From NCBI GenBank assembly GCA_965644315.1, contig CBFFRQ010000022.1, positions 1-54,105 on the forward strand: 54,105 nt of DNA. Reading direction: 5' to 3'. Positions 7,701 through 54,105 of the stretch are shown piece after piece; position 1 is the stretch's first letter, and each line of letters starts with the position of its first letter. The notes beneath the pieces were generated by a model that had not been told where the DNA came from, ran no database searches, and was given only the letters and a program-made list of their open reading frames with translations. Origin of the DNA: Caecitellus pseudoparvulus. Taxonomy: Eukaryota > Protista > Bigyra: Bicosoecida. Both the position numbers and the translations under genes were made by a program.

Positions 7701-7851
7701 GTGTCCTTGTCAAGGATGCGCGCTGATCTCTGCAAGCGCTGCCTCGCAGTCGCACACGCCACGCACCGCAGCCGCAAGCTGGGCGGCGGCCTTGCGAACC
7801 CTTTCACATTGCGGCTGCATGCCCTGTTTCGCAGACACACTCATGTCTTCA

Positions 7852-26454: not shown

Positions 26455-28182
26455 TCACGCCGGCGTGAGGGGCTGCACTGGGGAGCCGCCCACCGCAGAC
26501 GCCACCACCCGCACCAAGCGCTCCACAGCGGCTGACGCGAGGTGGAAGGGGCCTGGCAAGCCCGCTCCCTCCTGGCTGTGTGCCAGCTGCACCCCCTGCC
26601 AGGCCACCGCTGCGACGAATAGCGCCAGGAGAAGGGCAATGCCCCACAACGCCAGGTTGCTGCGGCGCACTCGAGGCCAGAGGAGGATGCTGTGGTCAGC
26701 GCTGGCGGTCAAGAGGTGTGCGCCATCTGGCGTGTACGCCAGGCCCAACGCGCCGAAGGAGTGCGTGGTCTGGTACGCGCCCACATACGCCAGGTCTGGC
26801 AGCGCATACTCGTAGACACGTCGATCTGCACAGGCGATGGCGACAGCACCACCGCCACACGTGACAGTGCTTGTGGCAGCGGCACGGGGTGTCACCACCT
26901 TGCTCACATCAGCATGCCAGGCCCACTCCCCCAGCACTCGGCTCAGAGCAGGCTGCGTTTCCTCGGCTGTCGAGGCCGGCGCAGGCAGGGGAGTCAACAC
27001 ACCATCCGCGTCTGCACGGCTAGCGCCTTGCACGGGCTTGTGCATGATGGTGATTTCGTTGTCCACTCCCCGGGGACCAAAGGTGCTGGGAAACGTACTC
27101 TGCGGTGCTTCAGTCAGTGTCCACAGCGAGGCAAGCGCTCCGCCCTGCGAGAGAAGGGTGGGCGTGGCCGCTGCGTTTCGCTGCGCAACGCGTCACCGCG
27201 CCGCCTGCCACGCACGAATTGGGACGTCTCCAGTGTCAAGAGGGTGTCTTCCAGGAAGTGCAGACTGACATACTTGAATGATCCGGGCGTTGTGTGGCGC
27301 TGCTTGCGCCCAGGGCGTGGCGGCGCTGGCTTGGTGATGTGTGCCGATGCCTGGCAGGGCAGCGTCCAGGAGAAGACATCCCCCTCCACCGCCCCGCGCA
27401 GCTGCGGCAAGCTCCAAATGCGGCACGTGCCATCCATGCTGCCAGAGGCCACCAGCCCCCCGATGGCGTTCACAGCCAGGGACACGACGGGTGCGGAGTG
27501 CCCCGTGCACTCTGCCACCAGCCGTGGACAGTCCGCCGGGCCGTCCACCTCACCCCCCACGTGCCACACCCGGACAACGCCGTCAGCGCCGCCAGACACC
27601 AGGCACGTGTGCTCCCATCCCCACGCCAGGGCGTTGACGTCGGGCGTGTCGGAGGTAGCAAAGTCCGCTGGGAAACGCACCACTTCCTGCAGTCTGTGGC
27701 GCAAGTCAGGCGAGCGTGCAGCGGCAGTGCCGCCCCGTGACACGCCAGCTCTCATACCTGCCACTCTCGCCGTCGCGGGTGAACACGACGATGCTGTCTC
27801 CAGCCGCCCCTGCCACGCGCTTGCCCTGCGAAAGTCGCCATGGAAGGTGCAGAAGTGGTTGCCACGTCGGCTGCGCCGGCACGCACGTCCTCTGACACTG
27901 CCACGTGCGTGATGAAGGTGCTGCCCGAGAGGAACGCAGTGCCTTTCGCCAGCTCCACTTTGTTGGTGCCGGTGTTCTCCACGTGCACCATGGTCTGTGG
28001 AGCAAGGCAGCGGCGGTTGCGGAATTTGCACGCCTCTCGCAGCGGTCGAATGCCCGCCTGCGCACCAGGGCATTCTCAATTCCAGTCTTGGAGCTGCCAC
28101 CGCCTGAAACAGCCAGTGTACCACCTGCGAGGGGCACCAGCTGGAAGACTGGTGCCCCCATGGAGGCGCTGGACAGCGCCAT
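26455..28182 (-). CDS. SEC12: SEC12/PREB-like WD40 Sar1 GEF with C-terminal TM (multi-exon)
   Basis: K-loop AVSGGGSSKTGIENAL, WD repeats (LVSGGADGVVRVW, GHSAPVVSLAV..VASGSMDGTCRIW, LLTASADHSILLW) and TM LALWGIALLLALFVAAVAW. Exons are joined by GTGCGC/GTGCGT/GTATGA..CAG introns. Confidence 0.85.
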
Positions 28183-28809
28183 GGCTTTGTTGTGGCTTGG
28201 GACAGAGCAGGTCCCACCACGCCAATGAATATCGTGTGGGCAAGGAAGGGTGACGGAGCCACACTGCCAGACACGACAAGGCCGCAACCCTTACACACAA
28301 AAGTGCGGGCACAGCAAAGCGGGCGGTTTTGCCCCGTCCAGTGCCGTGCATGGACAGCGCTGCTCGGAGCGCACGAGTCCACCCCCTCCATCGCACTCCG
28401 CGCCTTGGCGCAGCTCCCGTCAGCACTCGAACGGGGATCTTGCGGATGTCCAGATAGCTTGTTCCGCACCTCTCTTGGTGCGTCACGGATTGGTGGATCA
28501 AGGCGAGATACCAACGGCTTGTGTCAATCCTGTGAGATCAACACATCGACTTAGAATCTTTCTATGTTTGCGCTAGTTGACTGTCGGGAAAAAGAGAATG
28601 TACCATGCCTGAGGAACTGTTTTAGCCATTTTGGCGAGATCAACGAGCCGAACCTTGATTTTTTGCCCCAGGCGTTAGTGAGAAAGGGGTCGCACGCTGT
28701 CGAGACAGGAAATCAACCCTGAGAGAGTCAGCACTGCAAGAGCGGCGATTAGGACTCTGGAAATCAAGCATTGGTACAATTATTCGGGTGTTGTGGCATT
28801 TTCGAGGCA

Positions 28810-30612
28810 ATGGAGTCCACCCAATCACGCTTGGTGCAGCCGAGCGTTTCTGTCACCCCGACAACGGCAGCATCCGTTGAGCGACGGGCCTCTGCGCCAC
28901 ATTCTGCATGTTGCGTGATTCAACATGTCGGTCACAAGTTGTTCAAAAGGGTATACCATAAAACACAAAAGCTGCGGGGCACGAAACGTCGCAACATCGA
29001 CCGCAACGACTCGATGGAGGGGGCCAGGCTGCACCCCAAAATCCGCAAGGGGACACCCACCTACGAATTCCTCACATCGGGCGAGTGCCTCACCTTCATG
29101 CGCATGAGAGCAAGAAATTTAGCCAAAGCCCTCTCTGGCTTGATATCGGACAGCTTCTTGAGGTGGAACGCCCTCAGGGACATCCAGAATGGGCGTGAAG
29201 CCGACCTCTTGCTCGGGGTGATGATGGTGTGTGCCGGGCGCAACCGCCAAGAGATCACGTCTAGGCTGAGCATTGCCGCTACTACTCTCCAAGACAGCAT
29301 TCCTCGGTTGATTCCAGTGCTGAAGACCTTCTTTTACAAAGCGCTGCCCTGGGCAGTGCTTCCAGAGCACCGCAGAGAGGCGCTTTCCTTCCATGGTGGA
29401 CTGGCTCCAGGGCTGGTAGGGTTCGTAGACGGCCTGACATGGGAGACGAAAGCAACTTCTTCAGACAAAGAGAACCGCATCTGGTACAGCAACCACCACT
29501 CGATGTACGGGTACAACTTTCTGTTGTTCTGCAGTGTTTCGGGGAGGGTTATATGGATCGAACCCATGGGCAAGGGCAACACAGTGTCTGAGATTGCAGC
29601 CGCGCGACGAGCAACCGAGCGCATGCTGCGCTCAGGCGCCATCAAGCAAGGCGAGTACTTTGTCGGTGACGGTGTATTCCAGGGAGTCAGGCCTGCTGTG
29701 CGGCACCTTCCGGGCAACAAGGCGTTGGAGAAGATGGCGGCCCGAGTTCAGTCTCTGTGGGTCTCCTCGCCAGCCCCTGGCTCTCTGCATTCTCCACGGG
29801 ACTTGGCAAGAGCAACGGCTTCCGCCCTGGCACACAAAACTGTGCAGCGTGAGATCTTCGTGTCAGGTCGCCAGGTTGTCGAGAACTGTGTGAAGGAGTT
29901 CAAGACGGTGTGTGGTCTCGTCCGATCGTCCAGTGTCAGACCATTGCAAGCGCAAACCAAGGAAAAAGAGATCAGAGACATGGGGTACATTACTGCTGGG
30001 ATGCTCGCTTTCCAACAAGCAGAGGGGCACCGGGTTCCTCGGTCAGAGCAGTGGCTCCACATCCGCGGTTCGCGTCAGCCAGCACTCGTCCTGTTTGAGC
30101 TGTTTGCATCCTTGGCTGGAGATTGTCCTGCTTCTAATCGCCGTGACAGTGAACTTGACGCAAGCCTTCCGAGCGGCATCGCGAAACGAAGGAGCGTATC
30201 TTTTCTTCATGACGTCTTACGGCTGCTTCGCGGGGCCGAGTTGGGTACGGCCGGGAGGCCTTCACTGGAACGAAGCGATATTGAGGCTGCTACTCAGCTG
30301 CAGCAAGTGCTCGCCTGGTCGGAACAAGGGAACTTGTCTCCTCTTGTAAGTGGCATTTTGTGCGGTGGTCTCACAGAACTTGGCAGGCTGAAAAAGCAGC
30401 GCAGGCAGGTAGCTGTCTCGCCACGCTCTGGTGTCGCATCCCCTGGGGGGCCTCCTCTCCTGGCATCATGGCATCGCCACACTCTCCACCTGGATACTGC
30501 CGCCCCGCCAAGACTGACGACGACAAGGTACGCCCACAGGAAGTCATGGATCTTGAAAAGCTGTGGGGTGCTGCAGCAGACAAGGCTGCTCTTGCCGGCA
30601 AGCCAGTTGTAG
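28810..30612 (+). CDS. DDE transposase (HTH_Tnp_4 + DDE_Tnp_4-like)
   Basis: HTH LLLGVMMVCAGRNRQEITSRLSIAATTLQDSI; catalytic GFVDG, WYSNHHSMYGYNF, FVGDGVFQG and RQVVENCVKEFK. Start is uncertain (track 28771; first ATG 28810). Confidence 0.88.
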   Translation: MESTQSRLVQPSVSVTPTTAASVERRASAPHSACCVIQHVGHKLFKRVYHKTQKLRGTKRRNIDRNDSMEGARLHPKIRKGTPTYEFLTSGECLTFMRMRARNLAKALSGLISDSFLRWNALRDIQNGREADLLLGVMMVCAGRNRQEITSRLSIAATTLQDSIPRLIPVLKTFFYKALPWAVLPEHRREALSFHGGLAPGLVGFVDGLTWETKATSSDKENRIWYSNHHSMYGYNFLLFCSVSGRVIWIEPMGKGNTVSEIAAARRATERMLRSGAIKQGEYFVGDGVFQGVRPAVRHLPGNKALEKMAARVQSLWVSSPAPGSLHSPRDLARATASALAHKTVQREIFVSGRQVVENCVKEFKTVCGLVRSSSVRPLQAQTKEKEIRDMGYITAGMLAFQQAEGHRVPRSEQWLHIRGSRQPALVLFELFASLAGDCPASNRRDSELDASLPSGIAKRRSVSFLHDVLRLLRGAELGTAGRPSLERSDIEAATQLQQVLAWSEQGNLSPLVSGILCGGLTELGRLKKQRRQVAVSPRSGVASPGGPPLLASWHRHTLHLDTAAPPRLTTTRYAHRKSWILKSCGVLQQTRLLLPASQL

Positions 30613-30953
30613 TCGGCAAGTACAATCATGATCCTGAGCTGTCCTACCCTCGTGGGATCGTCTACGCTCTTATTGAACCCACTCGAGACACCGCCACTTT
30701 TGAGGAGTCAGAAGAGGCGTATGATGTGTGGTACTATGACAAGTACGGAGATGAACTCCTCGAGACCCTCCCTGATGGGCAGACCGGAGGGCACTTGCTC
30801 ACATCCCTCCTTGAAGCAGAGACCCGCGACGTGGCAAAGAAAGACTACACGTGGCTCCCACCAGAGCACTTCAAGGAGGACTTTGACGGGAGTCAGCTTG
30901 TCGCGTACATGATGGATTGTCAGTCCTACAACTACGGCTACGTGAACGAGTGA
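30387..30953 (+). CDS. Probable spliced C-terminal exon of the transposase (acidic/aromatic domain)
   Basis: A GTAAGT donor at 30346 and a TGGCAG acceptor at 30386 join the transposase in frame to track ORF 30360..30953, which has globular composition. Confidence 0.5.
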   Translation, partial: AEKAAQAGSCLATLWCRIPWGASSPGIMASPHSPPGYCRPAKTDDDKVRPQEVMDLEKLWGAAADKAALAGKPVVVGKYNHDPELSYPRGIVYALIEPTRDTATFEESEEAYDVWYYDKYGDELLETLPDGQTGGHLLTSLLEAETRDVAKKDYTWLPPEHFKEDFDGSQLVAYMMDCQSYNYGYVNE

Positions 30954-30958
30954 AACAA

Positions 30959-32380
30959 TCACGGGGAGTCAGAGTGCCCTCGGCGGCGTCTGTTGTATCT
31001 CGCTACGTCTTGGAGAAATGCATCTCCTGTGCTTGGCACGTTGTCAGTGAAGTTTGGGCGAGTTCTCTTGTGACCGCCAATGGTGGGGCGGTCCGAAGCC
31101 TCGGGTGAAGGAGTTGGGGCGGGACCACCTAATCCTTCTTGCCGCATCGCACCAGAAGAGCTCGGTGGGGCACGAGAAGAAGATGGTGACCTCGAAGCAC
31201 TTGCAGTGTCAGCGGGAATGTGCCCAGTTTGTGAAGAAGCTATGACACTGAGGAGCTCCACAGCTCTCCTCTGATCTGCCCGGCCCTGGTCCACTTTGTC
31301 CACGAGCAGCACGAGCATCTCTGCCATTTTCTCGAATGGTGCAAGAAGGGCAATCGCATCACGAGCAAAAGCATTTACTGCCGAAGAAATGCCCATCCCC
31401 ACCAGCGCCGATTGACGCGCAGCTTCTGCTCGGGCAGCACGTTGCGCATCGGGCTCCACGGGCTCTTCCCCAGGCTGTGACTGTCCGGCCAGATCGTGCG
31501 AGTCATGAGGCAGATGAGGATTCTCGAGCAACGCGCTGTGGCTTTGGGTGCTACTCGCAAAAGACGAATCCAAGGAGCTCTCTCCGCTGCCCTCAACTGG
31601 ACCCAGCCCTCCGGTGGGCGGCGTGGGTTGGGGGGCGGGTGCTTGCCCCAGAGATATCCCGAGGGAGGGGACAGTAGGAACGTTGCTGGCACTTCCTTGC
31701 GATTCTTGACTTACAGCTGACCCTTGGATTCCGGGTGGCCCCAGTGAACCCTGCTGGGTGTGGAGTGTTTGCATCGGCAAGCCAACAGCGTGGCTCTGGA
31801 CCTGCGTGAAGGTTGCCAGGCTCGCACGAGGGGCGTTGTGGAGGTCCAAGAGTCTGCGGACCAACCACATGTCAATGAGAGCATGAAAGGAAATAGGTAC
31901 GATGTCCTCGTAAACACGGAACATGGTCTGCACCATGTCCGCGACGGTTGGGTAAACAGTCCGGCTGGTGCTCGGTAGGCCTCGCATGGCACATGCCTTG
32001 TCCCACAGCTCAGTGAACACGTCTTGGAACTCAGCGTGTGCCTTGTTCAGGTTCTTCCTTGTTGCATGGTAAAACATGCAGTGGGTAGCATGAAACACGG
32101 CTGATGCATGTGCCTTGCACTTCGGCCGGGAGCACAGTCCATGACTGTCCAGCTTCTGGAAGGAGAATTCGGGGATGAGAGCGGGGTCCAATACAAAGAC
32201 GGGGGCATTTCTGTTCGAAAGGCGCAGGATTGCGTCGCCCAGGATGTGTCCATCCACGGGGATGCCCAATTCAGAGAGCATGGTAGCTGGACTTTGTAGG
32301 TTGTTTGCACCACTCGGGTCAAAGGGGCGCTCCCGAGACAGACAAGAGAAGGAAAGTGAGCCAGGAGTTGTGCCCAACAT
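30959..32380 (-). CDS. Transposon accessory ORF2 (unknown; Cys/His cluster, low-complexity middle, coiled coil)
   Basis: Long ORF inside the TIRs, convergent with the transposase (stops 5 bp apart if the extra exon is used). It contains HGLCSRPKCKAH..HATHC. Confidence 0.7.
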   Translation of the reverse strand: MLGTTPGSLSFSCLSRERPFDPSGANNLQSPATMLSELGIPVDGHILGDAILRLSNRNAPVFVLDPALIPEFSFQKLDSHGLCSRPKCKAHASAVFHATHCMFYHATRKNLNKAHAEFQDVFTELWDKACAMRGLPSTSRTVYPTVADMVQTMFRVYEDIVPISFHALIDMWLVRRLLDLHNAPRASLATFTQVQSHAVGLPMQTLHTQQGSLGPPGIQGSAVSQESQGSASNVPTVPSLGISLGQAPAPQPTPPTGGLGPVEGSGESSLDSSFASSTQSHSALLENPHLPHDSHDLAGQSQPGEEPVEPDAQRAARAEAARQSALVGMGISSAVNAFARDAIALLAPFEKMAEMLVLLVDKVDQGRADQRRAVELLSVIASSQTGHIPADTASASRSPSSSRAPPSSSGAMRQEGLGGPAPTPSPEASDRPTIGGHKRTRPNFTDNVPSTGDAFLQDVARYNRRRRGHSDSP

Positions 32381-33336
32381 GCCCCCCGTCACCGGGGCGT
32401 CCTTTGTGTTGTAGAGAATCGCCTATTTGGCAAAGGAGGGGGGGAAGTGTGACGGTATGCGTAGCGATTTCCGCACACCGTTTCAAACCCTCACAGCTGC
32501 AAGAATGGTGTGCTCCGGTGGACTCAATGCAGTCCCCCTTTGTGACTTCGCACGCCGATCTAGCCTCCCTTGGGCTTGAAGTCCCGCCTGCTTTCACGGT
32601 AGGGGAGACCTTGACCTGTGAGCAACGCTCAAAATCTTGCCGTTATGCTCACCATTCAAACTGTGCTCGAGACTTGCTGAGGAAAGTACCAAGACCAAGG
32701 CACTGAGTGGCAATTCAGTGCAAAGCGGAGAAACAGATGAGTATCCGTTTTAGGCGAACGAGCGGGCCTACGTTGCGCTGGGGCAGGGCTGCCGATCGAG
32801 ACACGAGCACAAACGGCTACAAACACCCGCGTACTGCCGCACCCTCAGTTGCACGAAAAAAAGAACACCCAACAAGGCATACATGAGTGGATGGGAGGCG
32901 CTGGTAAATTCATATTGCACAACACCTCCTCACTGTGGAAATCGACTCCGCTGGTGACAAATCACAGGGGCCCCTGGAGTTCAAACCAACCCTGATCCAC
33001 CAATCCGTGACGCACCTCTTGCTGAGATGATGCGCACCGCATCGAGCGGAGCGGGGCACCCTTCATATGTCTTGCACCAAATTGCTCTTCATCCATTTCC
33101 CACTCTCACTTGTGGTGTCATTGGGCATGCGGACATCAGCGTGCATTGTGCCTTGTCTCCAGTCTTGGCCGCGACAGGTGAGCTTGCACTGGTGCAAGTG
33201 CGGAAGTTGCTCCCTCGCACGTCAGCTGCGACAGCGCCTTCCCGCCACACCAATGCACGCGTCCACTGCCATCACCCCGCAGGAGTCGGCTTTACAGCAC
33301 AGCTACGCCTGACTAGACCCTCTGCCATCCGTTGCC

Positions 33337-36255
33337 ATGGTGCGTGGGTGTAGGCATGGTGCCTCGCTTTCGCCAGCACTTGCGACAGAGCATGTCGCAC
33401 ACACACCACAGCACACAGCGCCCTGCCCGTCCCCCACGCCTCAGGCAGCAGCAACAGGACAAGTCATGGAGCGCAGTGCACCACCCACTACAGGCACCGA
33501 CGACACGCAGGCTGAGGTGGTGGCGGCATGCTTGCGCAAGGTGAAGTGCTTGCCGGGAGGAGTCATGGACCACGGTCCAGCACTGCGAGGACTGGCAGCC
33601 ATTGGGCGTGGCGAAGCGCCGGCTGCAGGCGACGCCCCATCGGCCATGAGCCTGGTGGAGCTGGAGGCTGCACTGCGTGACGCGGGGAGTGCGCTGTTGG
33701 AGCAGGCTGGGCTGTTGGCGGGGCAGCATGAGCGAGGTGGTGTATGTGCTGCGCTGCAGTACCTGTCATTTCGGTGCTTCTGCGCGGTGGATGTGCTGCA
33801 CCAAGCGGCGAGCGGTGTGAGTAACGATGCAGTGCCGGAGGGTGAGGCACTGTGGGGCGCCATTGTGGGTGCTTGGGGCAGTGTGCGGAGCGGTGTGAAT
33901 GTGGAGGGTGCGCTGGCTGACCTGACGCGATGGTGGCAAGGCTTCAAGGTGACGGGTGTGGATGTGGCTGGTCAGGGTGGCCCCGTCACACATGATGCTG
34001 GTGGCGAGGCAGCGATGGATGCGGCTCTGGCTGGCATGCGTCAGCAGGCTGGTTGGCTGCGAGGCGAGGCGGCAGGTGAGCTGAGGAGTGAGAGTGCTGC
34101 GGAGCACTTGGAGAGTGCAGCGAGCGCAGTGGAGGAGTTGCGTGGGCTGTTGGGGTGTGCGCCGGTGATGAGTGGTCGGAAGGTGAAGGTTGTGGGTGGG
34201 TTGGACTTGTCGGGCGGCTTGGAGTGCCTGAACGGCAAGGAAGTGAGTGTGTACAGTGGGCGGGTTGAGATCGTGGATGAGGATGTGGGTGGAGCTGGGG
34301 ATGTGGAGCAGTGGGCAGCGAGTGTGGAGGCGGGTGCAAGCGCACTTGCCACGAGTGTTGGCGCCGTGAAGCGTGGCGAAGCGGCTCGCATCGCCCATGG
34401 ACTGCCTCGGATGGCGCAGACTCCACGCAGAGCAGCACTAGCACACAGCAGTACAGCAGGCCGAGCTGATGAGCCACTCGGTCAGAGGAGCATGGTGACG
34501 GTGCAGGCGCAGTGTGAGGCGGGGTGGCCGTTGAGGGTGTTCCTGGAGGACGAAGGGTGGGGCGATGTTGGGCTGGATGTGAAGCAGCGCGTGGCTGTGA
34601 GGATGTTGGGTGTGTGTGCTGTGGCGGAGGCGTGTGGAGTGAGTCTGAGTGGTGTGGGTGTGGGGAGCTTTGTGGTGGTGGGTGTGGGGAGTGGCAGTGT
34701 TGGTGATCTGGTGGGGTCACTGGATGGGGGTGGGTGTGAGGTGGTGTTGAGTGCATGTGGCGGTGTGTGGGACACAGGTGGCTCTGATGGCGGCTGCCGT
34801 GGTGGTGAGGGTGATGGTGTGTTGAGTGTGCTGCGTGAGGTGCTTGATGTGGGAGGTGGTGCGTTGGGTTGCGGATCGGGCGCTGTGTCAAGCTTTGTGG
34901 GGAGCAGTGAAGGTGGTGAACATGCATTGACGAGCGCGTTGGAGGTGTTGGCGCGGGGAGGGAGTGGTTGCTGCATGGGTGCATATGCGATGGCGTGTGA
35001 GGGAAGTGGGGGTGGACTGGGTCACCTGGAAGGTGTGGAAAGTGAAGTGCGGGGTGTGCTTGATCGGGAGCAGGCAGGTGGTGCGGCAGGTCAGGCGGAG
35101 ACAGCTGACGCAGAGGCTGTACCGGCTACAGAGTCGAATATAGCTGCCGAGCAAGTGAAGTTCAGCGAGGAGAACACCACAGCGTTTGTGGAAGCGTGCA
35201 AGGAGGGTGAGCTTGCGAGAGTGCGCGAGTTGCTGTCATTGACGGGGGATGAGGCAGTGAATGTGCATGTGGAAGGAAATGTTGAGCTCCGGCCAGGGGT
35301 TTGCAGACAGGGCCCTGAGGCCGCTTTCCGAGTGGCATGCTACAATGGCCACACAGACATCGTGCGTGAGCTGCTGGGCCTCACTGGGGCGCGGGAGGTG
35401 GATGTACACGCGGCGGATGAGGATGGACCTGAGGCCGCCTTCCGATGGGCATGCCGCATGGGCCGCACAGATGTCGTGCGTGAGATGCTGGGCCTGACTG
35501 GGGCGCGGGAAGTGGATGTGCACGCGGCGGATGAGGGTGGACGTGAGGCTGGCTTCCGATGGGCATGCTACAATGGCCACACAGATGTCGTGCGTGAGCT
35601 GCTGGGCCTGACTGGGGCGTGGGAAGTGGATGTACACGCGGCGCCATGGGGTAGAGCTGAGGCCGCCTTCCGATATGCATGCCGCTATGGCCGCACAGAC
35701 ATCGTGCGTGAGCTGCTGGGCCTGACTGGGGCGCGGGCAGTGGATGTGCACGCGGCGGATGGGGATGGACCTGAGGCCGCCTTCCGATGGGCATGCCGCT
35801 GGGGCCACACAAACATCGTGCGTGAGCTGCTGGGCCTGACTGGGGCGCGGGAGGTGGATGTGCATGCGGCGGCTTGGGGTGGACCTGAGGCAGCCTTCCG
35901 AGGCGCATGCGAGAATGGCCACACAGACATCGTGCGTGAGCTGCTGGGCCTCACTGGGGCGCGGGAGGTGGATGTACACGCGGCGGATGAGGATGGACCT
36001 GAGGCCGCCTTCCGATGGGCATGCCGCATGGGCCGCACAGATGTCGTGCGTGAGCTGCTGGGCCTCACTGGGGCGCGGGAAGTGGATGTGCACGCGGCGG
36101 ATGGGGATGGACCTGAGGCCGCCTTCCGATGGGCATGCACCGAGGGCCACACAGACATCGTGCGTGAGCTGCTGGGCCTGACGGGGCACCGCAGGATCCC
36201 AGACAGCGTGCGACAGGAAGCCACCAAGTTTTCGAGCTTGAAGGAGTTGATTTGA
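33337..36255 (+). CDS. Helical domain + pseudokinase-like + ankyrin-repeat protein, copy 1 (8 repeats)
   Basis: 972-codon ORF with a probable in-frame intron right after the ATG (33340-33444, GTGCGT..CCTCAG). It has an ANK cap and eight 38-aa repeats GPEAAFRxACxxGHTDIVRELLGLTGAREVDVHAAxxx (the last truncated by the C-cap). Confidence 0.92.
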   Translation: MVRGCRHGASLSPALATEHVAHTPQHTAPCPSPTPQAAATGQVMERSAPPTTGTDDTQAEVVAACLRKVKCLPGGVMDHGPALRGLAAIGRGEAPAAGDAPSAMSLVELEAALRDAGSALLEQAGLLAGQHERGGVCAALQYLSFRCFCAVDVLHQAASGVSNDAVPEGEALWGAIVGAWGSVRSGVNVEGALADLTRWWQGFKVTGVDVAGQGGPVTHDAGGEAAMDAALAGMRQQAGWLRGEAAGELRSESAAEHLESAASAVEELRGLLGCAPVMSGRKVKVVGGLDLSGGLECLNGKEVSVYSGRVEIVDEDVGGAGDVEQWAASVEAGASALATSVGAVKRGEAARIAHGLPRMAQTPRRAALAHSSTAGRADEPLGQRSMVTVQAQCEAGWPLRVFLEDEGWGDVGLDVKQRVAVRMLGVCAVAEACGVSLSGVGVGSFVVVGVGSGSVGDLVGSLDGGGCEVVLSACGGVWDTGGSDGGCRGGEGDGVLSVLREVLDVGGGALGCGSGAVSSFVGSSEGGEHALTSALEVLARGGSGCCMGAYAMACEGSGGGLGHLEGVESEVRGVLDREQAGGAAGQAETADAEAVPATESNIAAEQVKFSEENTTAFVEACKEGELARVRELLSLTGDEAVNVHVEGNVELRPGVCRQGPEAAFRVACYNGHTDIVRELLGLTGAREVDVHAADEDGPEAAFRWACRMGRTDVVREMLGLTGAREVDVHAADEGGREAGFRWACYNGHTDVVRELLGLTGAWEVDVHAAPWGRAEAAFRYACRYGRTDIVRELLGLTGARAVDVHAADGDGPEAAFRWACRWGHTNIVRELLGLTGAREVDVHAAAWGGPEAAFRGACENGHTDIVRELLGLTGAREVDVHAADEDGPEAAFRWACRMGRTDVVRELLGLTGAREVDVHAADGDGPEAAFRWACTEGHTDIVRELLGLTGHRRIPDSVRQEATKFSSLKELI
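35311..36190 (+). repeat. 114-bp coding tandem repeat (ankyrin), 8 copies
   Basis: Period of 114 bp (ggccctgagg at 35311, ggacctgagg at 35425, and so on). Confidence 0.95.
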
Positions 36256-36397: not shown

Positions 36398-37420
36398 TCA
36401 CACCTCATCACCATTCCCACGCACCCCACCCCCCCCCTCACCTTCACTGCACTCCCCTCCGCACCGCACCAACGCCTCCCACACCCGCTTCCTGCCCTTC
36501 CCACCACCGCCTCGCAGCACCTTCAGCTTGTCCATGCGCATCGCCACGTGGCGCTTCTTCGCCTGCGCCTTCCGGCTCAGACACCCTGCAGCTGCTGCCG
36601 GCTTTACCACCGCCCCCTGCGCCACCTGCTTCGCCCGCCGCTCCTTCGCCGCCGCCCTGGCCCGCCACTCGCCGTTGTACACCGTCAGGAACACATCTGC
36701 ACCCATGGCAGCCTGCACACCCTCCATGACCTCCGACGCCAAGCCACCTGCCTCCGACGCAGCGGCCACCTGCTTTGCCTGCTCTGACCAGGATGGCGCG
36801 TCGGCCAGGCGGGGGTCGCTGGCCACGTGCTCTGCCGCCTGCACAGTGCGGAACACTGCCCGTGCCACCAGCACCACGTACCGCTGCAGGTCTGCCTGTG
36901 GCAAGTGCCCAGCCATGGCCCCGAACACGTTCAGCGCCGCTGTAGCTGGCGGCCCGCCCTTGTGCACTGCCGTGTTGCTGAGGCGCTGCAGCAGCCAGAA
37001 CAGCGGGTCCCGCGCACCGCCGCCGTCGTCGTCATGGGCGGTGTGTGTGGAGGGCGAGCTGTCACGCTGCACCGCCTTGCCGCCCACCACCTCCACGCCA
37101 CCCACGAGCAGGGTGAACTTGCCAGCCAAGCGAGTCGTGCGCTGGGCGAGGTAGGGCGGGATGGTGTTGCGGGAGCTGGGCGGCGTCGTGGCGTACAGCC
37201 CCACCGCCGTGAACAGCAACACCGGCGCCAGAGCCGTGCCCTGCTCCCTGCTCAGCGCCCCGTCCGCCAGCTGCACACAGGCTGCCCGGGCCAGGGCGAA
37301 CAGGCGCTCATACCCAGCCAGCCACGCCGCCACGCCAGGCGGTGGGGGGCAGCTCCCCACGCTCGCCACTGCCACGGTGTTCAGGACGGCGCCCAGCCAC
37401 CTGGCTGCCGGCTCCCGTAC
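36398..37420 (-). pseudogene. UTP20: UTP20 C-terminal fragment, copy 1
   Basis: LFWLLQRLS..ALNVFGAMA..LASEVME..GADVFLTVY..RAAAKERRAKQ..AVVKPAAAA..KAQAKKR parallels the UTP20 C-terminus (LLWLIQKLS..IFKFLGAVA..LSQEIIE..RALRKKRKA..VTNPDIAA). It is truncated at the array junction. Confidence 0.75.
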
Positions 37421-37845
37421 CTGCCACTCTCGCCGTCGCGGTTGAACACGACGATGCTGTCTCCAGCCGCCCCTGCCACGCGCTTGCCCTGCGAAAGTCG
37501 CCGTGGAAGGTGCAAAAGTGGTTGCCACGTCGGCTGCGCCGGCACGCACGTCCTCCGACACTGCCACGTGCGTGATGAAGGTGCTGCCCGAGAGGAAGGC
37601 AGTGCCTTTCGCCAGCTCCACTTTGTTGGTGCCAGTGTTCTCCACGTGCACCATGGTCTGTGGAGCACAGCAGCGGCGGTTGCGGAATTTGCACGCCTCT
37701 CGCAGCCGTCGAATGCCCGCCTGCGCACCAGGGCATTCTCAATGCCAGTCTTGGAGCTGCCACCGCCTGAAACAGCCAGAGTTCCACCTGCGAGGGGCAC
37801 CAGCTGGAAGACTGGTGCCCCCATGGAGGCGCTGGACAGCACCAT
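37418..37845 (-). pseudogene. SEC12: SEC12 5' fragment (exons 1-3), copy 2
   Basis: Near-identical to 27755-28182 and truncated at the junction. Confidence 0.9.
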
Positions 37846-38462
37846 GGCTTTGTTGTGGCTTGGGACAGAGCAGTCGCCACCACGCCAATGAATATCGTGT
37901 GGGCAAGGAAGGGTGACGGAGCCACACTGCCAGACACGACAAGGCCGCAACCCTTACACACATGTGGGGGCACAGCAGAGCGGGCGGTTTTGCCCCGCCC
38001 AGTGCCGTGCACGGACAGCGCTGCTCGGAGCGCACGAGTCGACCCCCTCCATCGCACTCCGCGCCTTGACGCAGCTCCCGTCAGCACTCGAACGGGGATC
38101 TTGCGGATGTCCAGATAGCTTGTTCCGCACCTCTCTTGCTGAGATGATGCGCACCGCATCGAGCGGAGCGGGGCACCCTTCACATGTCTTGCACCAAATT
38201 GCTCCTCATCCATTTCCCACTCTCACTTGTGGGTTCATTGGGCATCCGGACATCAGCGTGTCTTCTGCCTTGTCTCCAGTCTTGGCCGCCCTGTTCGCCA
38301 CAGGTGAGCGTGCACTGGTGCAAGTGCGGAAGTTGCTCCCTCGCACGTCAGCTGCGACAGCGCCTCCCCACGGCACCAACACACGCGTCCACTGCCATCA
38401 CCCCGCAGGAGTCGGCTTTACAGCACAGCTGCGCCTGACTAGACCCCCTGCCGTCCATTGCC

Positions 38463-40919
38463 ATGGTGCGTGGGTGTAGCCATGGTGCCTCGCTTTCGCC
38501 AGCACTTGCGACAAAGCGTGTCGCACACACACCACAGCACACAGCGCCCTGCCCCTCCCCCACGCCTCAGGCAGCAGCAACAAGTCAAGCCACGGAGGGC
38601 AGTACAGCGCCCACTGCAGGCATCGACGACGCACAGGCTGAGGTGGTGGCGGCATGCTTGCGCAAGATGAAGTGCTTGCCGGGCAGCGTCATGGACCACG
38701 GCCCAGCACTGCGAGGACTGGCAGCCATTGGGCGTGGCGAAGCGCCGGCTGCAGGCGACGCCCCATCGGCCATGAGCCTGGTGGATCTGGAGGCTGCACT
38801 GCGTGATGCGGGGAGTGCGCTGTTGGAGCAGGCTGGGCTGTTGGCGGGGCAGCGTGAGCGAGGTGATGTGTGTGCTGCGCTGCAGTACCTGTCGTTCCGG
38901 TGCTTCTGCGCGGTGGATGTGCTTCATCAAGCGGCATCTGGTGTGAGTGCCGATGCGGTGCCGGAGGGCGACGCACTGTGGGGCGCCATTGTGGGTGCTT
39001 GGGGCAATGTACGGGCCGGTGTGAACGTGGAGGGTGCGCTGGCTGATCTGACACGATGGTGGCAAGGCTTCGAGGGGGGGGATGTGTATGTGGCTGGTGA
39101 GGGAGGCTCTTTCACACACGATGCCGGTGGCGAGGCAGCGGTGGAGGCGGCTCTGGCTGGCATGCGGCAGCAGGCTGGTTGGCTGCGAGGCGAGGCTGCA
39201 GGCGAATTGAGGAGTGAGAGTGCTGCGAAGCACTTGGAGTGTGCTGCAAGTGCAGTGGAGGAGCTGCGTGGGCTGTTGGGGTGTGGCCCAGTGATGAGTG
39301 GTCGGAAGGTGAAGGCTGTGCGCGGGTTGGACTTGTCGGGCGGCTTGGAGTGTCTGAATGGCAAGGATGTGAGTGTGTACAGTGGACGGGTTGAGATCGT
39401 GGATGAGGATGTTGGAGGAGCTGGGGATGTGGAGCAGTGGGCAGCGAGTGTGGAGGCGGGTGCGAGGGCGCTTGCCACGAGTGTTGGCGCCGTGAAGCGT
39501 GGCGAAGCGGCTCGCATCGCGCATGGCCTGCCGCGGATGGCGCAGACTCCACGCAGAGCAGCACTAGCACACAGCAGTACAGCAGGCAGGGCTGATGAGC
39601 CACTCGGTCAGAGGAGCATGGTGACGGTGCAGGTGCAGTGTGAGGCGGGGTGGCCGCTGAGGGTGTTCCTGGAGGATGAAGCGTGGGGCGATGTTGGGCT
39701 GGAGGTGAAGCAGCGCGTGGCTGTGAGGGTGCTGGGTGTGTGTGCTGTGGCGGAGGCATGTGGGGTGGATGTGAGTGGCGTGTGTGTGGGGAGCTTCGTG
39801 GTGGTGGGTGTGGAGAGTGGGAGTGTGGGTGATCTGGTGGGCGCACTGGATGGGGGTGGGTGTGAGGTGGTGTTGAGTGCATGTGGCAGTGTGTGGGGCA
39901 CAGGTCGCCTTGATGGTGTCAGAGGTGATGGTGGTGGTGTGTTGGGTGTGCTGCGTGAGGTGCTTGGCGTGGGAGGTGGTGCGTTGGGTGGCGGACCGGG
40001 CGTTGGATCAAGCTTCGTTGACAGCGGTGAAGGTGGTGAGCATGCACTGACAAGCGCGTTGGAGGTGTTGGGGCGGGGAGGGAGTGGTTGCTGCATGGGT
40101 GCATATGCGATGGCGTGTGAAGGAAGTGGAGGTGGAGTGGGTCATCTGGAAGGTGTGGAAAGTGCTGTGCGGAGTGTGCTTGATGGTGAGCAGGCAGCTG
40201 GTGCGGCGGGTCAGGCGCATACAGCTGACGCTGAGGCTGTACCGGCTACAGAGTCGGAGATTGCTGCCGAGCAAGTGAAGTTCAGCGAGGAGAACACCAC
40301 AGCGTTTGTGGAAGCGTGCAAGGATGGGGAACTTGCGAGAGTGCGCGAGTTGCTTGCATTGACGGGGGATGAGGCAGTGAATGTACATGCGGAAGGAAGT
40401 GTTGAGGTCTTGCCTGGGTTTCACAAACAGGGCCCTGAGGCCGCTTTCCGAGCGGCATGCCGCAATGGCCACACAGACATCGTGCGTGAGCTGCTGGGCC
40501 TCACTGGGGCGCGGGAGGTGGATGTGCATGCGGCGGATGGGGGTGGGCCTGAGGCCGCCTTCCGAGGCGCATGCCGCTATGGCCGCACAGACATCGTGCG
40601 TGAGCTGTTGGACCTGACTGGGGCACGGGCAGTGAATGTGCACGCGGCGGATGGGGCTGGACCTGAGGCCGCCTTCCGACTGGCATGCCGCTGGGGCTAC
40701 ACAGACATCTTGCGTGAGCTGCTGGCCCTCACTGGGGCGCGGGCAGTGGATGTGCACGCAGCGGATAAGCATGGCCCCGAGGCTGCCTTCCGATGGGCAT
40801 GCCGTGAAGGCTACACAGACATCGTGTGTGAGCTGCTGGGGCTGACTGGGCATCGCAGGATCCCAGACAGCGTGCGACAGGAAGCCACCAAGTTTTCGAG
40901 CTTGAAGGAGTTGATTTGA
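38463..40919 (+). CDS. Helical domain + pseudokinase-like + ankyrin-repeat protein, copy 2 (4 repeats)
   Basis: Paralog of 33337..36255; 114-bp repeats start at 40431. Confidence 0.92.
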   Translation: MVRGCSHGASLSPALATKRVAHTPQHTAPCPSPTPQAAATSQATEGSTAPTAGIDDAQAEVVAACLRKMKCLPGSVMDHGPALRGLAAIGRGEAPAAGDAPSAMSLVDLEAALRDAGSALLEQAGLLAGQRERGDVCAALQYLSFRCFCAVDVLHQAASGVSADAVPEGDALWGAIVGAWGNVRAGVNVEGALADLTRWWQGFEGGDVYVAGEGGSFTHDAGGEAAVEAALAGMRQQAGWLRGEAAGELRSESAAKHLECAASAVEELRGLLGCGPVMSGRKVKAVRGLDLSGGLECLNGKDVSVYSGRVEIVDEDVGGAGDVEQWAASVEAGARALATSVGAVKRGEAARIAHGLPRMAQTPRRAALAHSSTAGRADEPLGQRSMVTVQVQCEAGWPLRVFLEDEAWGDVGLEVKQRVAVRVLGVCAVAEACGVDVSGVCVGSFVVVGVESGSVGDLVGALDGGGCEVVLSACGSVWGTGRLDGVRGDGGGVLGVLREVLGVGGGALGGGPGVGSSFVDSGEGGEHALTSALEVLGRGGSGCCMGAYAMACEGSGGGVGHLEGVESAVRSVLDGEQAAGAAGQAHTADAEAVPATESEIAAEQVKFSEENTTAFVEACKDGELARVRELLALTGDEAVNVHAEGSVEVLPGFHKQGPEAAFRAACRNGHTDIVRELLGLTGAREVDVHAADGGGPEAAFRGACRYGRTDIVRELLDLTGARAVNVHAADGAGPEAAFRLACRWGYTDILRELLALTGARAVDVHAADKHGPEAAFRWACREGYTDIVCELLGLTGHRRIPDSVRQEATKFSSLKELI

Positions 40920-41092: not shown

Positions 41093-42067
41093 TCACTGCA
41101 CTCCCCTCCGCACCGCACCAACGCCTCCCACACCCGCTTCCTGCACTTCCCACCACCGCCTACGCACCACCTTCAGCTTGTCCATGCGCATCACAACGTG
41201 GTGCTTATTCGCCTGTGCCTTCCGACTCCGACACCCTGCTGCTGCTGCCGGGTTCACCACCGCCTCCTGCGCCACCTGCTTCGCCCGCCGCTCCTTCGCC
41301 GCTGCCCTGGCTCGTCGCTCGCCGTTGTACGCCGTCAGGAACACATCTGCGCCCACGGGGCCCTGCACCGCCTCCATGACCTCCGACGCCAAGGCACCTG
41401 CCTCCGCCGCAGCGGCCGCCTGCTGGCCTTGCTCTGACCAGGATGGCGCATCGGCCAGGCGGGGGTCGCTGGCCACGTGCTCTGCCGCCTGCACAGTGCA
41501 GAACACTGCCCGTGCCACCGGCACCACGTAGCGCTGCAGGTTCGCCTGCGTCAAGTGCCCAGCCATGGCCCCGAACACGTTCAGCGCCGCTGTAGCTGGC
41601 GGCCCGCCCTTGTGCACTGCCGTGTTGCTGAGGCGCTGCAGCAGCCAGAACAGCAGGTCCCGCGCACTGCCGTCGTTGTCGTGGGCGGTGTGTGTGGAGG
41701 GCGAGCTGTTTCGCTGCACCGCCTTGCTGCCCACCACCTCCACGCCACCCACGAGCAGGGTGCACTTGCCGGCCAAGCGAGCAGTGCGCTGGGCGAGGTG
41801 GGGCGGGATGGTGTTTCGGGAGCTGGGCGGCGTCGTGGCGTGCAGCCCCACCGCCGTGAACAGCAGCACCGACGCCAAAGCCGTGCCGTGCTCCCTGCTC
41901 AGCGTCCCGTCCGTCAGCTGCACACAGGCTGCCCCGGTCAGGGCGAACAGGCGCTCATCCCCAGCCAGCCACGCCGCCACGCCAGGCGGTGGGGGGCAGC
42001 TCCCCACGCTCGCCACTGCCACGGTGTTCAGGACGGCGCCCAGCCACCTGGCTGCCGGCTCCCGTAC
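41093..42067 (-). pseudogene. UTP20: UTP20 C-terminal fragment, copy 2
   Basis: Paralog of 36398..37420 with a frameshifted tail (RRRWWEVQ instead of RGGGGKGRK). Confidence 0.75.
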
Positions 42068-42492
42068 CTGCCACTGTCGCCGTCGCGGGTGAACACGACG
42101 ATGCTGTCTCCAGCCGCCCCTGCCACGCGCTTGCCCTGCGAAAGTCGCCGAGGGAGGTGCAAAAGTGGTTGCCACGTCGGCTGCGCCGGCACGCACGTCC
42201 TCCGACACTGCCACGTGCGTGATGAAGGTGCTGCCCGAGAGGAAGGCAGTGCCTTTCGCCAGCTCCACTTTGTTGGCGCCGGTGTTCTCCACGTGCACCA
42301 TGGTCTGGGGAGCACAGCAGCGGCGGTTGCGGAATTTGCACGCCTCTCGCAGCCGTCGAATGCCCGCCTGCGCACCAGAGCATTCTCAATGCCAGTCTTG
42401 GAGCTGCCACCGCCTGAAACAGCCAGAGTACCACCTGCAAGGGGCACCAGCTGGAAGACGGGTGCCCCCATGGAGGCGCTGGACAGCGCCAT
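42065..42492 (-). pseudogene. SEC12: SEC12 5' fragment, copy 3
   Basis: MALSSASMGAPVFQLVPLAGGTLAVSGGGSSKTGIENAL, truncated at the junction. Confidence 0.9.
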
Positions 42493-43101
42493 GGCTTTGT
42501 TGTGGCTTGGGACAGAGCAATCGCCACCACGCCAATGAATATCGTGTGGGCAAGGAAGGGTGACGGAGCCGCACTGCCAGACACAACAAGGCCGCAGCCC
42601 TTACACGCAAAGTGCGGGCACAGCAAAGCGGGCGGTTTTGCCCCGCCCAGTGCCGTGTATGGACAGCGCTGCTCGGAGCACACGAGTCGACCCCCTCCAT
42701 CGCACTCCGCGCCTTGGCGCAGCTCCCGTCAGCACTCGAACGGGGATCTTGCGGGTGTCCAGATAGCTTGTTCCGCACCTTTCCTGCTGAGATGATGGGC
42801 ACCGCATCGAGCGGAGCGGGACACCCTTCACATGTCTTGCACCAAATTGCTCCTCATCCATTTCCCACTCTCACTTGTGGGTTCATTGGGCATCCGGAAA
42901 TCAGCGTGCATTGTGCCTTGTCTCCACTTCTGGCTGACACAGGTGAGCGTGCACTGGTGCAAGTGCGGAAGTTGCTCCCTCACAAGTCAAGCACGACAGC
43001 GCCTTCCCACCACACCACTGCAACTGTCCACTGCCATCACCCCGCAGGAGTCGGCTTTACAGCACAGCTACGCCTGACTAGACCCCCTACCGTCCATCGC
43101 C

Positions 43102-45786
43102 ATGGTGCGTGGGTGTAGCCATGGTGCCTCGCTTTCGCCAGCACTTGCGACAAAGCGTGTCGCACACACACCACAGCACACAGCCCCCTGCCCCTCCCCG
43201 ACGCCTCAGGCAGCAGCAACAAGTCAAGCCATGGAGGGCGCTGCATCAGCCACTGCAGGCATCGATGACACACAGGCTGAGGTGGTGGCGGCATGCTTGG
43301 GCAAGTTGAAGTGCTTGCCGGGCAGCGTCATGGACCACGGACCAGCACTGCGAGGACTGGCAGCCATTGGGCGTGGCGAAGCGCCTGCTGCAGGCGACGC
43401 CCCATCGGCCATGAGCCTGGTGGAGCTGGAAGCTGCACTGCGTGATGCGGGGAGTGCGCTGTTGGAGCAGGCTGGGCTGTTGGCAGGGCAGCATGAGCGA
43501 GGTGGTGTGTGTGCTGCGCTGCAGTACCTGTCGTTCCGGTGCTTCTGCGCGGTGGATGTGCTGCATCAGGCGGTGTCTGGCGTGAGTGTCGATGCGGTGC
43601 CGGAGGGCGACGCACTGTGGGGCGCCATTGTGGGTGCTTGGGGCAGTGTGCGGAGCGGTGTGAACGTGGAGGGTGCGCTGGCTGATCTGACGCGATGGTG
43701 GCAAGGCTTCGAAGTGGCAGATGTGGATGTGGCTGGTGAGGGTGGCCCACTCACACATGATGCTGGTGGCGAGGCGGCGACGGATGCGGCTCTGGCTGGC
43801 ATGCGTCAGCAGGCTGAGTGGCTGCGAGGCGAGGCGGCAGGCGAGTTGAGGAGTGAGAGTGCTGCGAAGCACTTGGAGTGTGCTGCAAGTGCAGTGGAGG
43901 AGCTGCGTGGGTTGTTGGGGTGTGCGCCTGCGATGAGTGGTCGGAAGGTGAAGGCTGTGCGTGGCTTGGACTTGCCAGGCGACTTGGAGTGCCTGAACGG
44001 CAAGGGTGTGAGTGTGTACAGTGGGCGGGTTGAGATCGTGGATGAGGATGTGGGTGGATCTGGTGATGTGGAACAGTGGGCAGCAAGTGTGGAGGCGGGT
44101 GCGACAGCCCTTGCCACGAGTGTTGGCGCTGTGAAGCGTGGCGAAGCGGCTCGCATCGCGCATGGACTGCCGCGGATGGCGCAGACACCACGCAGAGCAG
44201 CACTCGCACACAATACTTCAGCTGGCCGAGCTGATGAGCCACTCGGCCAGAGGAGCATGGTGACGGTGCAGGTGCAGTGTGAGGCGGGGTGGCCGCTGAG
44301 GGTGTTCCTGGAGGACGAAGCGTGGGGCGATGTCGGGCTGGAGGTGAAGCAGCGCGTGGCTGTGAGGGTGCTGGGTGTGTGTGCTGTGGCGGAGGCGTGT
44401 GGAGTGGAGGTGGGTGATGTGGGTGTGGGGAGCTTTGTGGTGGTTGGTGTGGGGAGTGGCAGTGTGGGTGATCTGGTGGGGTCACTGGAGGGGGGTGGGA
44501 TTGAGGTGGTGTTGAGTGCATGTGGCGGTGTGTGGGGCACAGGTGGCTCTGATGGGGGCAGCGGTGATGTGAAGGGTGTGTTGAGTGTGCTGCGTGAGGT
44601 GCTTGGTGTGGGAGGTGGTGCGTTGGGTGGCGGACCGGGCGTTAGGTCAAGCTTCGTAGGCAGCAGTGAAGGTGGTGAGCATGCACTGTCAGGCGCGTTG
44701 GAGGTGTTGGGGAGGGCAGGGAGCGGTTGCTGCATGGGTGCATATGCGATGGCGTGTGAAGGAAGTGGAGGTGGAGTGGGTCACCTGGAAGGTGTGGAAA
44801 GTGCTGTGCGGAGTGTGCTTGATGGTGAGCAGGCGGCTGCTGCGGCAGGGCAGGCGGAGACAGCTCAAGCTGAGGCTGTACCGGCTACAGAGTCGGAGGT
44901 TGCTGCGGAGCAAGTGAAGTTCAGCGAGGAGAACACCACAGCGTTTGTGGAAGCGTGCAAGGATGGGGAGCTTGCGAGAGTGCGCGAGTTGCTGGCATTG
45001 ACGGGGGATGAGGCAGTGGATGTGCATGCGGAAGGATGTGTTGAGGTCTGGCCTTGGTTTCACAAACAGGGCCCTGAGGCTGCCTTCCGATGGGCATGCG
45101 GCAATGGCCACACAGACGTCGTGCGTGAGCTGCTGGGCCTGACTGGGGCGCGGGAGGTGGATGTGCACGCGGCGGATGGGGGTGGACCTGAGGCTGGCTT
45201 CCGGGGCGCATACCTCATGGGCCACACTGACATCGTGCGTGAGCTGCTGGGCCTCACCGGGGTGCGGGAGGTGGATGTGCATGCGGCGGATGGGGGTGGA
45301 CCTGAGGCTGGCTTCCGACAGGCATGCTCCGAAGGCCACACAGACATCGTGCGTGAGCTGTTGGGCCTGACTGGGGCGCGGGAGGTGGATGTGCACGCGG
45401 CTGCTCGGGGTGGGCCTGAGGCTGGCTTCCGAGCAGCATGCTTCAATGGCCACACAGACATCGTGCGTGAGCTGCTGGGCCTGACCGGGGCGCGGGAGGT
45501 GGATGTGCACGCAGCGGATCGGGATGGACCTGAGGCTGGCTTCCGATGGGCATGCGGCAATGGCCACACAGACATCGTGCGTGAGCTGCTGGGCCTGACC
45601 GGGGCGCGGGAGGTGGATGTGCATGCGGCGGATGGGGATGGACCTGAGGCCGCCTTCCGACGGGCATGCGAGAATGGCCACACAGACATTGTGCGTGAGC
45701 TGCTGGGCCTGACGGGGCACCGCCGGATCCCAGACAGCGTGCGACAGGAAGCCACCAAGTTTGAGAGCTTGAAGGAGTTGATTTAA
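43102..45786 (+). CDS. Helical domain + pseudokinase-like + ankyrin-repeat protein, copy 3 (6 repeats)
   Basis: Paralog of copies 1 and 2; 114-bp repeats start at 45070. Confidence 0.92.
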   Translation: MVRGCSHGASLSPALATKRVAHTPQHTAPCPSPTPQAAATSQAMEGAASATAGIDDTQAEVVAACLGKLKCLPGSVMDHGPALRGLAAIGRGEAPAAGDAPSAMSLVELEAALRDAGSALLEQAGLLAGQHERGGVCAALQYLSFRCFCAVDVLHQAVSGVSVDAVPEGDALWGAIVGAWGSVRSGVNVEGALADLTRWWQGFEVADVDVAGEGGPLTHDAGGEAATDAALAGMRQQAEWLRGEAAGELRSESAAKHLECAASAVEELRGLLGCAPAMSGRKVKAVRGLDLPGDLECLNGKGVSVYSGRVEIVDEDVGGSGDVEQWAASVEAGATALATSVGAVKRGEAARIAHGLPRMAQTPRRAALAHNTSAGRADEPLGQRSMVTVQVQCEAGWPLRVFLEDEAWGDVGLEVKQRVAVRVLGVCAVAEACGVEVGDVGVGSFVVVGVGSGSVGDLVGSLEGGGIEVVLSACGGVWGTGGSDGGSGDVKGVLSVLREVLGVGGGALGGGPGVRSSFVGSSEGGEHALSGALEVLGRAGSGCCMGAYAMACEGSGGGVGHLEGVESAVRSVLDGEQAAAAAGQAETAQAEAVPATESEVAAEQVKFSEENTTAFVEACKDGELARVRELLALTGDEAVDVHAEGCVEVWPWFHKQGPEAAFRWACGNGHTDVVRELLGLTGAREVDVHAADGGGPEAGFRGAYLMGHTDIVRELLGLTGVREVDVHAADGGGPEAGFRQACSEGHTDIVRELLGLTGAREVDVHAAARGGPEAGFRAACFNGHTDIVRELLGLTGAREVDVHAADRDGPEAGFRWACGNGHTDIVRELLGLTGAREVDVHAADGDGPEAAFRRACENGHTDIVRELLGLTGHRRIPDSVRQEATKFESLKELI

Positions 45787-46946: not shown

Positions 46947-47232
46947 CTGCCACTCTCGCCGTCGCGGTTGAACACGACGATGCTGTCTCCAGCCGCCCCT
47001 GCCACGCGCTTACCCTGCGAAAGTCGCCGAGGAAGGTGTAAAAGTGGTTGCCCCGAGGTTGCCGGCACCCCAGCCGGCAACCATGTTTCCCGGCAGGAGG
47101 GGCGGCGGGCAGTCCCACGCTAGTGGCACAATTGTCCCCCGCCGCCCCAACGCAGAGTAGACGACGGCAGGACCGGGCATGACAAAACCAGTCATTAGCC
47201 GGCCTCGTCACTCTCTTTCCTTTTTTTTCGAG

Positions 47233-53852: not shown

Positions 53853-54105
53853 ATGGTGCGTGGGCGTGGGCATGGTGCCTCGCTTTCGCCAGCACTTGCG
53901 ACAAAGCGTGTCGCGCACACGCCACAGCACACAGCGCCCTGCCCCTCCCCGACGCCTCAGGCAGCAGCAACAGGACAAGCCATGGAGGGCAGTGCAGTGC
54001 CCACTGCAGGCATCGACGACGCACAGGCTGAGGTTGTGGCGGCATGCTTGCGCAAGGTGAAGTGCTTGCCGGGCAGCGTCATGGACCACGGCCCAGCACT
54101 GCGAG
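53853..54105 (+). CDS. Ankyrin/pseudokinase gene copy 4, 5' end only
   Basis: ATG GTG CGT ... AEVVAACLRKVKCLPGSVMDHGPALR in the same frame as copies 1-3; cut by the window end. Confidence 0.85.
   Translation, partial: MVRGRGHGASLSPALATKRVAHTPQHTAPCPSPTPQAAATGQAMEGSAVPTAGIDDAQAEVVAACLRKVKCLPGSVMDHGPALR

Follow-up and report, generated by a model that had tools for sequence, protein, structure and literature searches.

We analysed a 54,105-nt stretch of DNA from Caecitellus pseudoparvulus (contig CBFFRQ010000022.1; we call the whole stretch the window), which carries three full tandem copies of a pseudokinase-ankyrin gene and a fourth that is cut by the window's end. These genes belong to a real, expressed family that plausibly works like a hybrid of MLKL and an NLR; the family is not established as an MLKL. 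A sequence-only reading had proposed a helical bundle, a dead kinase and an ankyrin sensor in an MLKL-like layout. These three parts are supported by a predicted kinase fold, the loss of catalytic residues, two brace-like helices and a diversifying ankyrin face. The likeness to MLKL is one of layout and of helix order (bundle, brace, pseudokinase) only: our comparisons yielded no sequence or structural tie between the bundle and 4HB or HeLo domains, and several features are unlike those of MLKL. What had been named as contrary evidence, the lack of a kinase fold or a housekeeping match of the N-terminal domain, did not appear: the kinase fold is predicted.

Features of copy 1 and positions of the other copies:
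33221..33282, + strand: 62-nt GT..AG intron in the 5' untranslated region (UTR)
33313-36255, + strand: copy 1, the open reading frame (ORF) that holds the finding
33337..33339, + strand: start codon of copy 1, at the end of the first coding exon
33340..33444, + strand: 105-nt GT..AG intron directly after the ATG
33511..33951, + strand: N-terminal helical bundle, residues 1-147 of the AlphaFold2 (AF2) model
33997..34152, + strand: two-helix hairpin, residues 163-191 and 194-214 of the AF2 model
34144..35019, + strand: pseudokinase with a protein-kinase fold in the structure model, residues ~212-503
35182..36255, + strand: ankyrin array (Pfam Ank_2, E 4.6e-29)
38463..40919 (ORF 38439-40919), + strand: copy 2, 783 amino acids (aa) once spliced, 4 regular ankyrin units
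43102..45786 (ORF 43078-45786), + strand: copy 3, 859 aa once spliced, 6 regular ankyrin units
53853..54105, + strand: copy 4, 5' part only, ending at the window edge

The product of copy 1 is 937 aa once spliced and opens with about 23 flexible residues. The ORFs of copies 2 and 3 are 87% identical.

A predicted kinase fold without catalytic residues

The central domain is predicted to have a bilobed protein-kinase fold. In the model, strands at 226-228, 238-241 and 245-255, a 34-residue alphaC-like helix (262-295), two long strands and the hinge are followed by alphaD, alphaE (355-374), the catalytic loop, beta7, an inserted helix, beta8, a short segment and three C-lobe helices. The C-lobe is reduced, and the activation segment is short and lacks APE. 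The hinge (Q-x-x-C-E-x-G-W-P-L) is invariant or nearly so across the rows of the family alignment.

We assigned the catalytic registers from the order of secondary structure in the model, not from a residue-level alignment. The sequence-only reading was right that HRD and the following Asn are lost and that DFG is replaced: L-S-G stands at the HRD site, where 3 of 22 rows have Asp; Ser replaces the Asn in 21 of 22 rows; and A-C-G/S stands at the DFG site, where none of 21 rows has Asp. Asp is not conserved anywhere in the catalytic loop or the DFG region, as no position there has it in more than 4 of 22 rows. The lysine of GAVKR (34363-34374), which had been taken for the VAVK lysine, was misassigned and sits in the long alphaC-like helix; no N-lobe strand Lys is conserved, since no position from 222 to 255 has Lys in more than 9 of 22 rows. 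The activation segment spans 14-26 aa and has APE in 0 of 21 rows. It also lacks a conserved Ser or Thr: none of the positions 417-437 has either residue in more than 10 of 21 rows. A pseudokinase is defined by loss of the VAIK Lys, the HRD Asp or the DFG Asp (PMC4718504), and all three are absent from this family as conserved residues. From the model, we predict that the domain does not carry out phosphotransfer, and it probably does not bind ATP.

Sequence comparison did not find this fold. Pfam reported no families at E <= 1 for the 545-aa pre-ankyrin region and only five unrelated weak families (best E 0.007) for 15 aligned family members, while the family profile had just two chance matches among PDB sequences. 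With hhalign, the kinase region scored 12.9 against 20 TKL-type kinases (taken from 20 of 49 viral-contig loci), which is inside 60 column-shuffled controls (14.7 +/- 2.3). Because Pfam, HMMER and profile comparison all failed on it, sequence-based kinome surveys would not count this kinase fold. The best ESM Atlas matches (0.92-0.93) are clusters of ~270 aa, mostly bacterial (Minisyncoccota and Saccharimonadota where known), which may be other unrecognised kinase-fold proteins.

Separately, one His and many Cys residues are conserved across 85-100% of the rows (model positions 79, 89, 312, 335, 369, 375, 409, 416 and 488; 33511-35070).

The N-terminal bundle and the hairpin

The bundle's helices in the AF2 model span residues 2-10, 21-32, 48-69, 73-100, 111-123 and 131-147; two are long (22 and 28 aa) and four are short. 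The predicted local distance difference test score (pLDDT) is 86-96 across the block of residues 1-140. For the whole 520-aa model (bundle, hairpin and pseudokinase), the predicted template modelling score (pTM) is 0.87, and bundle and pseudokinase are predicted to pack compactly. The hairpin lies between them, in the place of MLKL's brace, as judged solely from where it lies and from its secondary structure. The bundle matched no Pfam or Atlas family, and none of the 15 family rows matched a HeLo-type Pfam family at E <= 10. By eye, WGAIV (115-119) resembles the Bcl-2 BH1 motif; this candidate had no Pfam support and was dropped.

Selection on the copies and variation of the ankyrins

We compared the three full copies pairwise by the ratio of nonsynonymous to synonymous proportions (pN/pS, Nei-Gojobori). 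This ratio is 0.21-0.37 for the bundle, 0.14-0.23 for the hairpin and 0.21-0.39 for the kinase core, and 0.56-0.60 for a near-neutral control (a UTP20-like passenger fragment in each tandem unit). The distal C-lobe (0.51-0.69) and the linkers (0.35-0.90) are not significantly below 1. The bundle and the pseudokinase are under purifying selection.

The array of copy 1 has one capping repeat and then eight near-identical 38-aa units from 35311 (stop codon TGA at 36253-36255). Between the paralogues, the number of regular units varies (8, 4 and 6 in copies 1, 2 and 3). Over 100 aa, repeat identity is 90/100 in copies 1 and 3 and 80/100 in copy 2. These 18 units are almost fixed except at positions 8, 11, 12, 14 and 36-38. 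At the variable positions, pN/pS is 2.0 and 6.9, versus 0.22 elsewhere in the units, but these ratios are inflated because we chose the sites with their variability already in view and the 153 unit pairs depend on one another; the replacement excess is a pattern, not a test. The variable sites lie in the turn and at the end of the first helix, on the predicted binding face, and the ankyrin (ANK) repeats of fungal NLRs vary on that same face (PMC4986451).

The family is transcribed and spliced

All four copies have the ATG at the end of the first coding exon, followed by a 105-nt GT..AG segment. We placed contigs on 33000-34300 at 85% likeness from X11, X13 and X16 (seawater runs of one study, labelled metatranscriptomic but flagged "RNA? 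probably DNA") and from the DNA run X14. Contigs of X11 and X16 contain a joint that skips exactly 105 nt, as well as the joint of the 5' UTR intron (33220->33283), and matching loose ends at the 105-nt intron occur in X11 and X13. The X14 contigs have neither joint and span the 105-nt intron. Because the joints occur in X11 and X16 and not in X14, the family is transcribed and spliced, on one study's evidence, in close relatives: most of the placed contigs are 85-99% alike and hence come from relatives or paralogues, not from copy 1 itself. Among the runs listed as containing window DNA (marine and seawater metagenomes, where named), none is on record as RNA.

We reject an artefact or a pseudogene on the grounds of open frames, purifying selection and splicing. 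An upstream "MVRG" that looked like a conserved N-terminus is the ATG plus the splice donor.

A closed family with varying C-termini

With the pre-ankyrin region as query, we matched 11 of 7,990 scored candidates (6 of 7,999 among shorter candidates). The 15-row profile matched 19 of 1.84 billion protein cluster representatives; since all of these had E <= 1e-30 and none fell between 1e-30 and 1e-3, this is a closed family and a sequence orphan. Searches of metagenome and viral contigs gave no related loci. Two family fragments, which lie on contigs of 1.3 and 3.4 kb, carry the label Symbiodinium sp. KB8. The relatives end in ankyrin arrays, in ankyrin plus Sel1 repeats (P0011, strongly, with nine Sel1 stretches; P0149, with one weak stretch) or in nothing. 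In a tree of 20 near-complete rows, the window copies group with P0004 (99/95), which points to recent local duplication.

In the relative P0151 (see below), the first 1,118 aa match no Pfam family and open with a short motif that is glycine-loop-like by eye.

A proposed sensor and its alternatives

The reading that we favor, at about an even chance, is that these genes encode an all-in-one non-self sensor, in which variable ankyrins recognise, the pseudokinase latches and the bundle acts. The ankyrins would bind a foreign ligand that keeps changing (a protein of viral, symbiont, prey or allelic origin), the pseudokinase would be a conformational latch rather than an enzyme, and ligand binding would release the bundle as the output domain. 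Because no activation-loop Ser or Thr is conserved, the attached repeats would be the trigger, in place of an upstream RIPK3-like kinase. The model is weakest at its output: given a sensor, direct membrane damage and the recruitment of a partner seem about equally probable. Overall, we consider direct killing by MLKL-type membrane damage doubtful. Just as doubtful is the fullest version, a one-chain protist necroptosis receptor in which hypervariable ankyrins would trip a nucleotide-free pseudokinase latch and so unleash a membrane-disrupting bundle that is unrelated in sequence to 4HB or HeLo.

Several observations weigh against such a sensor or against its MLKL-like output, besides the inflation of the ankyrin ratios. 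MLKL has a basic lipid-binding patch, and HeLo domains have an N-terminal hydrophobic helix. Residues 1-147 of the window proteins are net acidic (-4, -6 and -7 in copies 1-3; -9 to +3 across 22 rows) and their most hydrophobic stretch is an internal helix near residue 78, which weakens the bundle's tie to either. The Foldseek match to MLKL (4btf) is weak (E 0.015, 394 columns, root-mean-square deviation 22.3), and because RNase L, GRK2 and MEK1 likewise give alignments of 371-438 columns, an alignment that extends into the helices is not specific to MLKL. By Z score, MLKL does not stand apart, as ALK, FGFR and others come within 1 unit of it; both VIA lists were taken up by the kinase domain, and the model of the bundle is part of a model of the larger chain. 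Finally, the P0014 cluster (four members) is without any repeats (P0014 and the three other members stop at the same residue, on contigs of up to 30.7 kb), and P0151 (1,608 aa) bears the module C-terminally, after ~1,118 aa, although the relatives are automatic gene calls, on which their N-termini and this fusion rest.

These two architectures, with the module alone or at the end of a larger protein, also favor the main rival, a scaffold or decoy that does not itself contain an effector. In this case, bundle and pseudokinase would form a rigid unit for the binding or inhibition of some other protein, either an invader's effector or a receptor or kinase of the host, and the ankyrins would give specificity. 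The pTM of 0.87 over 520 aa suggests one rigid unit, and Pfam found no effector family for the bundle in 15 of 15 rows. However, the bundle is conserved as strongly as the pseudokinase, the helix order copies the bundle, brace and pseudokinase of MLKL (PMC11476962), and plant MLKLs, too, are tightly packed when auto-repressed (10.1101/681015). We view a scaffold or decoy as possible, if rather unlikely.

It is improbable that these are selfish or conflict genes not aimed at pathogens (allorecognition or poison-antidote genes) that spread by tandem duplication among transposons. The tandem units (4.6-5.1 kb each, ~90% alike), with their passenger fragment and two transposon insertions, would fit, and fungal incompatibility genes have the same repeat behaviour (PMC4986451), but an antidote-like partner gene is absent from the unit, and the present data do not separate pathogen-driven from self-driven diversification. 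ANK proteins often serve interactions between organisms (PMC4986451), yet an offensive effector against prey or host is very unlikely, as the spliced N-terminus is short, polar and low-complexity and, judged by eye and without a signal-peptide predictor, does not resemble a hydrophobic leader. Least credible is an atypical kinase that is active because its catalytic residues have migrated: 19 of 22 rows retain the alphaC-like Glu and WNK kinases are active without the usual lysine (PMC4718504), but this family has neither the conserved N-lobe Lys nor a conserved Asp in the catalytic loop or DFG region.

If we return to the non-self sensor, the window family is an expressed, expanding and diversifying receptor candidate with separately testable parts. 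To our knowledge, cell-autonomous defence in unicellular eukaryotes is largely unknown.

Gene setting

The DNA of the window is eukaryotic, rich in GC and poor in introns. Its housekeeping genes include seipin, REV1, the small primase subunit and an amino-acid permease. For REV1, the best match overall is at 55%, and the best matches with a name are at 27-37%. Each tandem unit carries one passenger fragment that resembles the C-terminus of UTP20 (Pfam UTP20_C; E 0.67, 7e-05 and 7e-04, all under Pfam's curated cut-off):
36398..37738, - strand: UTP20 C-terminus-like passenger fragment
41093-42385, - strand: UTP20 C-terminus-like passenger fragment
45972-47009, - strand: UTP20 C-terminus-like passenger fragment

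An extra partial copy of the unit's upstream part (27744-28477) adjoins a WD40 gene. Upstream of copy 1 is a PIF/Harbinger-like DNA transposon (28477-33016) with a DDE_Tnp_4 ORF (28753-30612, + strand), a second ORF (30959-32422, - strand), 27-nt terminal inverted repeats and an apparent 4-bp target duplication, a length that is unusual for this superfamily. Between copies 3 and 4 lies a retroelement (47053-52923), likely of the DIRS/Ngaro type. It has a gag-like ORF (47161-49317), a reverse transcriptase (49318-51537; RVT_1, E 1.7e-07), an ORF with tyrosine-recombinase-like motifs by eye and no Pfam match (51383-52357), and a 177-nt direct repeat at 47053 and 52539. Elsewhere, 7666-9771 (+ strand) encodes a Kelch propeller fused to a cytochrome b561-like membrane domain.

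Comparison with known systems

In RIPK4 and ANKK1, a kinase domain with canonical motifs precedes the C-terminal ankyrins, and neither is known to have a helical bundle at the N-terminus. The window family shares their order of kinase domain and ankyrins but lacks the catalytic motifs.

MLKL consists of a four-helix bundle, a two-helix brace and a pseudokinase, and its N-terminal domain alone kills cells (PMC11476962). The C-terminal pseudokinase and the position of the brace are common to the window family. However, we detected no sequence link; MLKL keeps the beta3 Lys (PMC4718504) and the window family does not, nor does it have a conserved activation-loop Ser/Thr phospho-switch. ATP binding by MLKL does not depend on cations. 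The bundle of the window family is acidic, with two long and four short helices, and an ankyrin array is fused C-terminally. If the bundle kills, this would be an independent origin of the MLKL layout, with a sensor fused in place of the upstream kinase.

Outside animals, bundle, brace and (pseudo)kinase are combined in plant MLKLs (AtMLKL1-3; 10.1101/681015), whose auto-repressed state is tightly packed, and in fungal HELL-domain kinases and pseudokinases (PMC12881547). Unlike the window bundle, theirs were identified as HeLo by hidden Markov model or structure, and plant MLKLs end in a Ser-rich tail whereas the window family ends in repeats. MLKL-family homologues in Glomeromycotina carry Sel1 repeats, in a lineage-specific expansion (PMC8778642). 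Repeats on an MLKL-type protein are a likeness, and Sel1 also occurs in our P0011 and P0149, but those homologues were found by sequence homology to MLKL, and the window family shows none. RNase L has an ankyrin sensor, a pseudokinase and an effector in one chain (PMC4718504), in the reverse order and with an enzymatic effector, canonical ATP binding and a fixed small-molecule ligand; neither Pfam nor the model shows a nuclease domain in the window family. The layout thus has precedents in the Glomeromycotina homologues with Sel1, in fungal HELL kinases and, reversed, in RNase L. The earlier suggestion that this is not a described family fails for the layout, given the fungal cases (PMC8778642, PMC12881547), and holds for the family itself, of which full-text literature searches (the supplements of fungal surveys being outside their scope) found no description.

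The repeats of fungal NLRs with high internal conservation are at least 85% identical over 100 aa and vary in number and on the binding face (PMC4986451). The window family resembles these NLRs in its effector-switch-repeat order, near-identical repeats, variation in unit number and variable binding-face sites. It differs in its switch, which would be a pseudokinase instead of a NACHT or NB-ARC NTPase: Pfam finds ankyrins only in the window protein, and the central domain has the predicted kinase fold. If the receptor reading is true, a unicellular lineage would have independently invented an NLR-like immune receptor in which a dead kinase replaces the NTPase.
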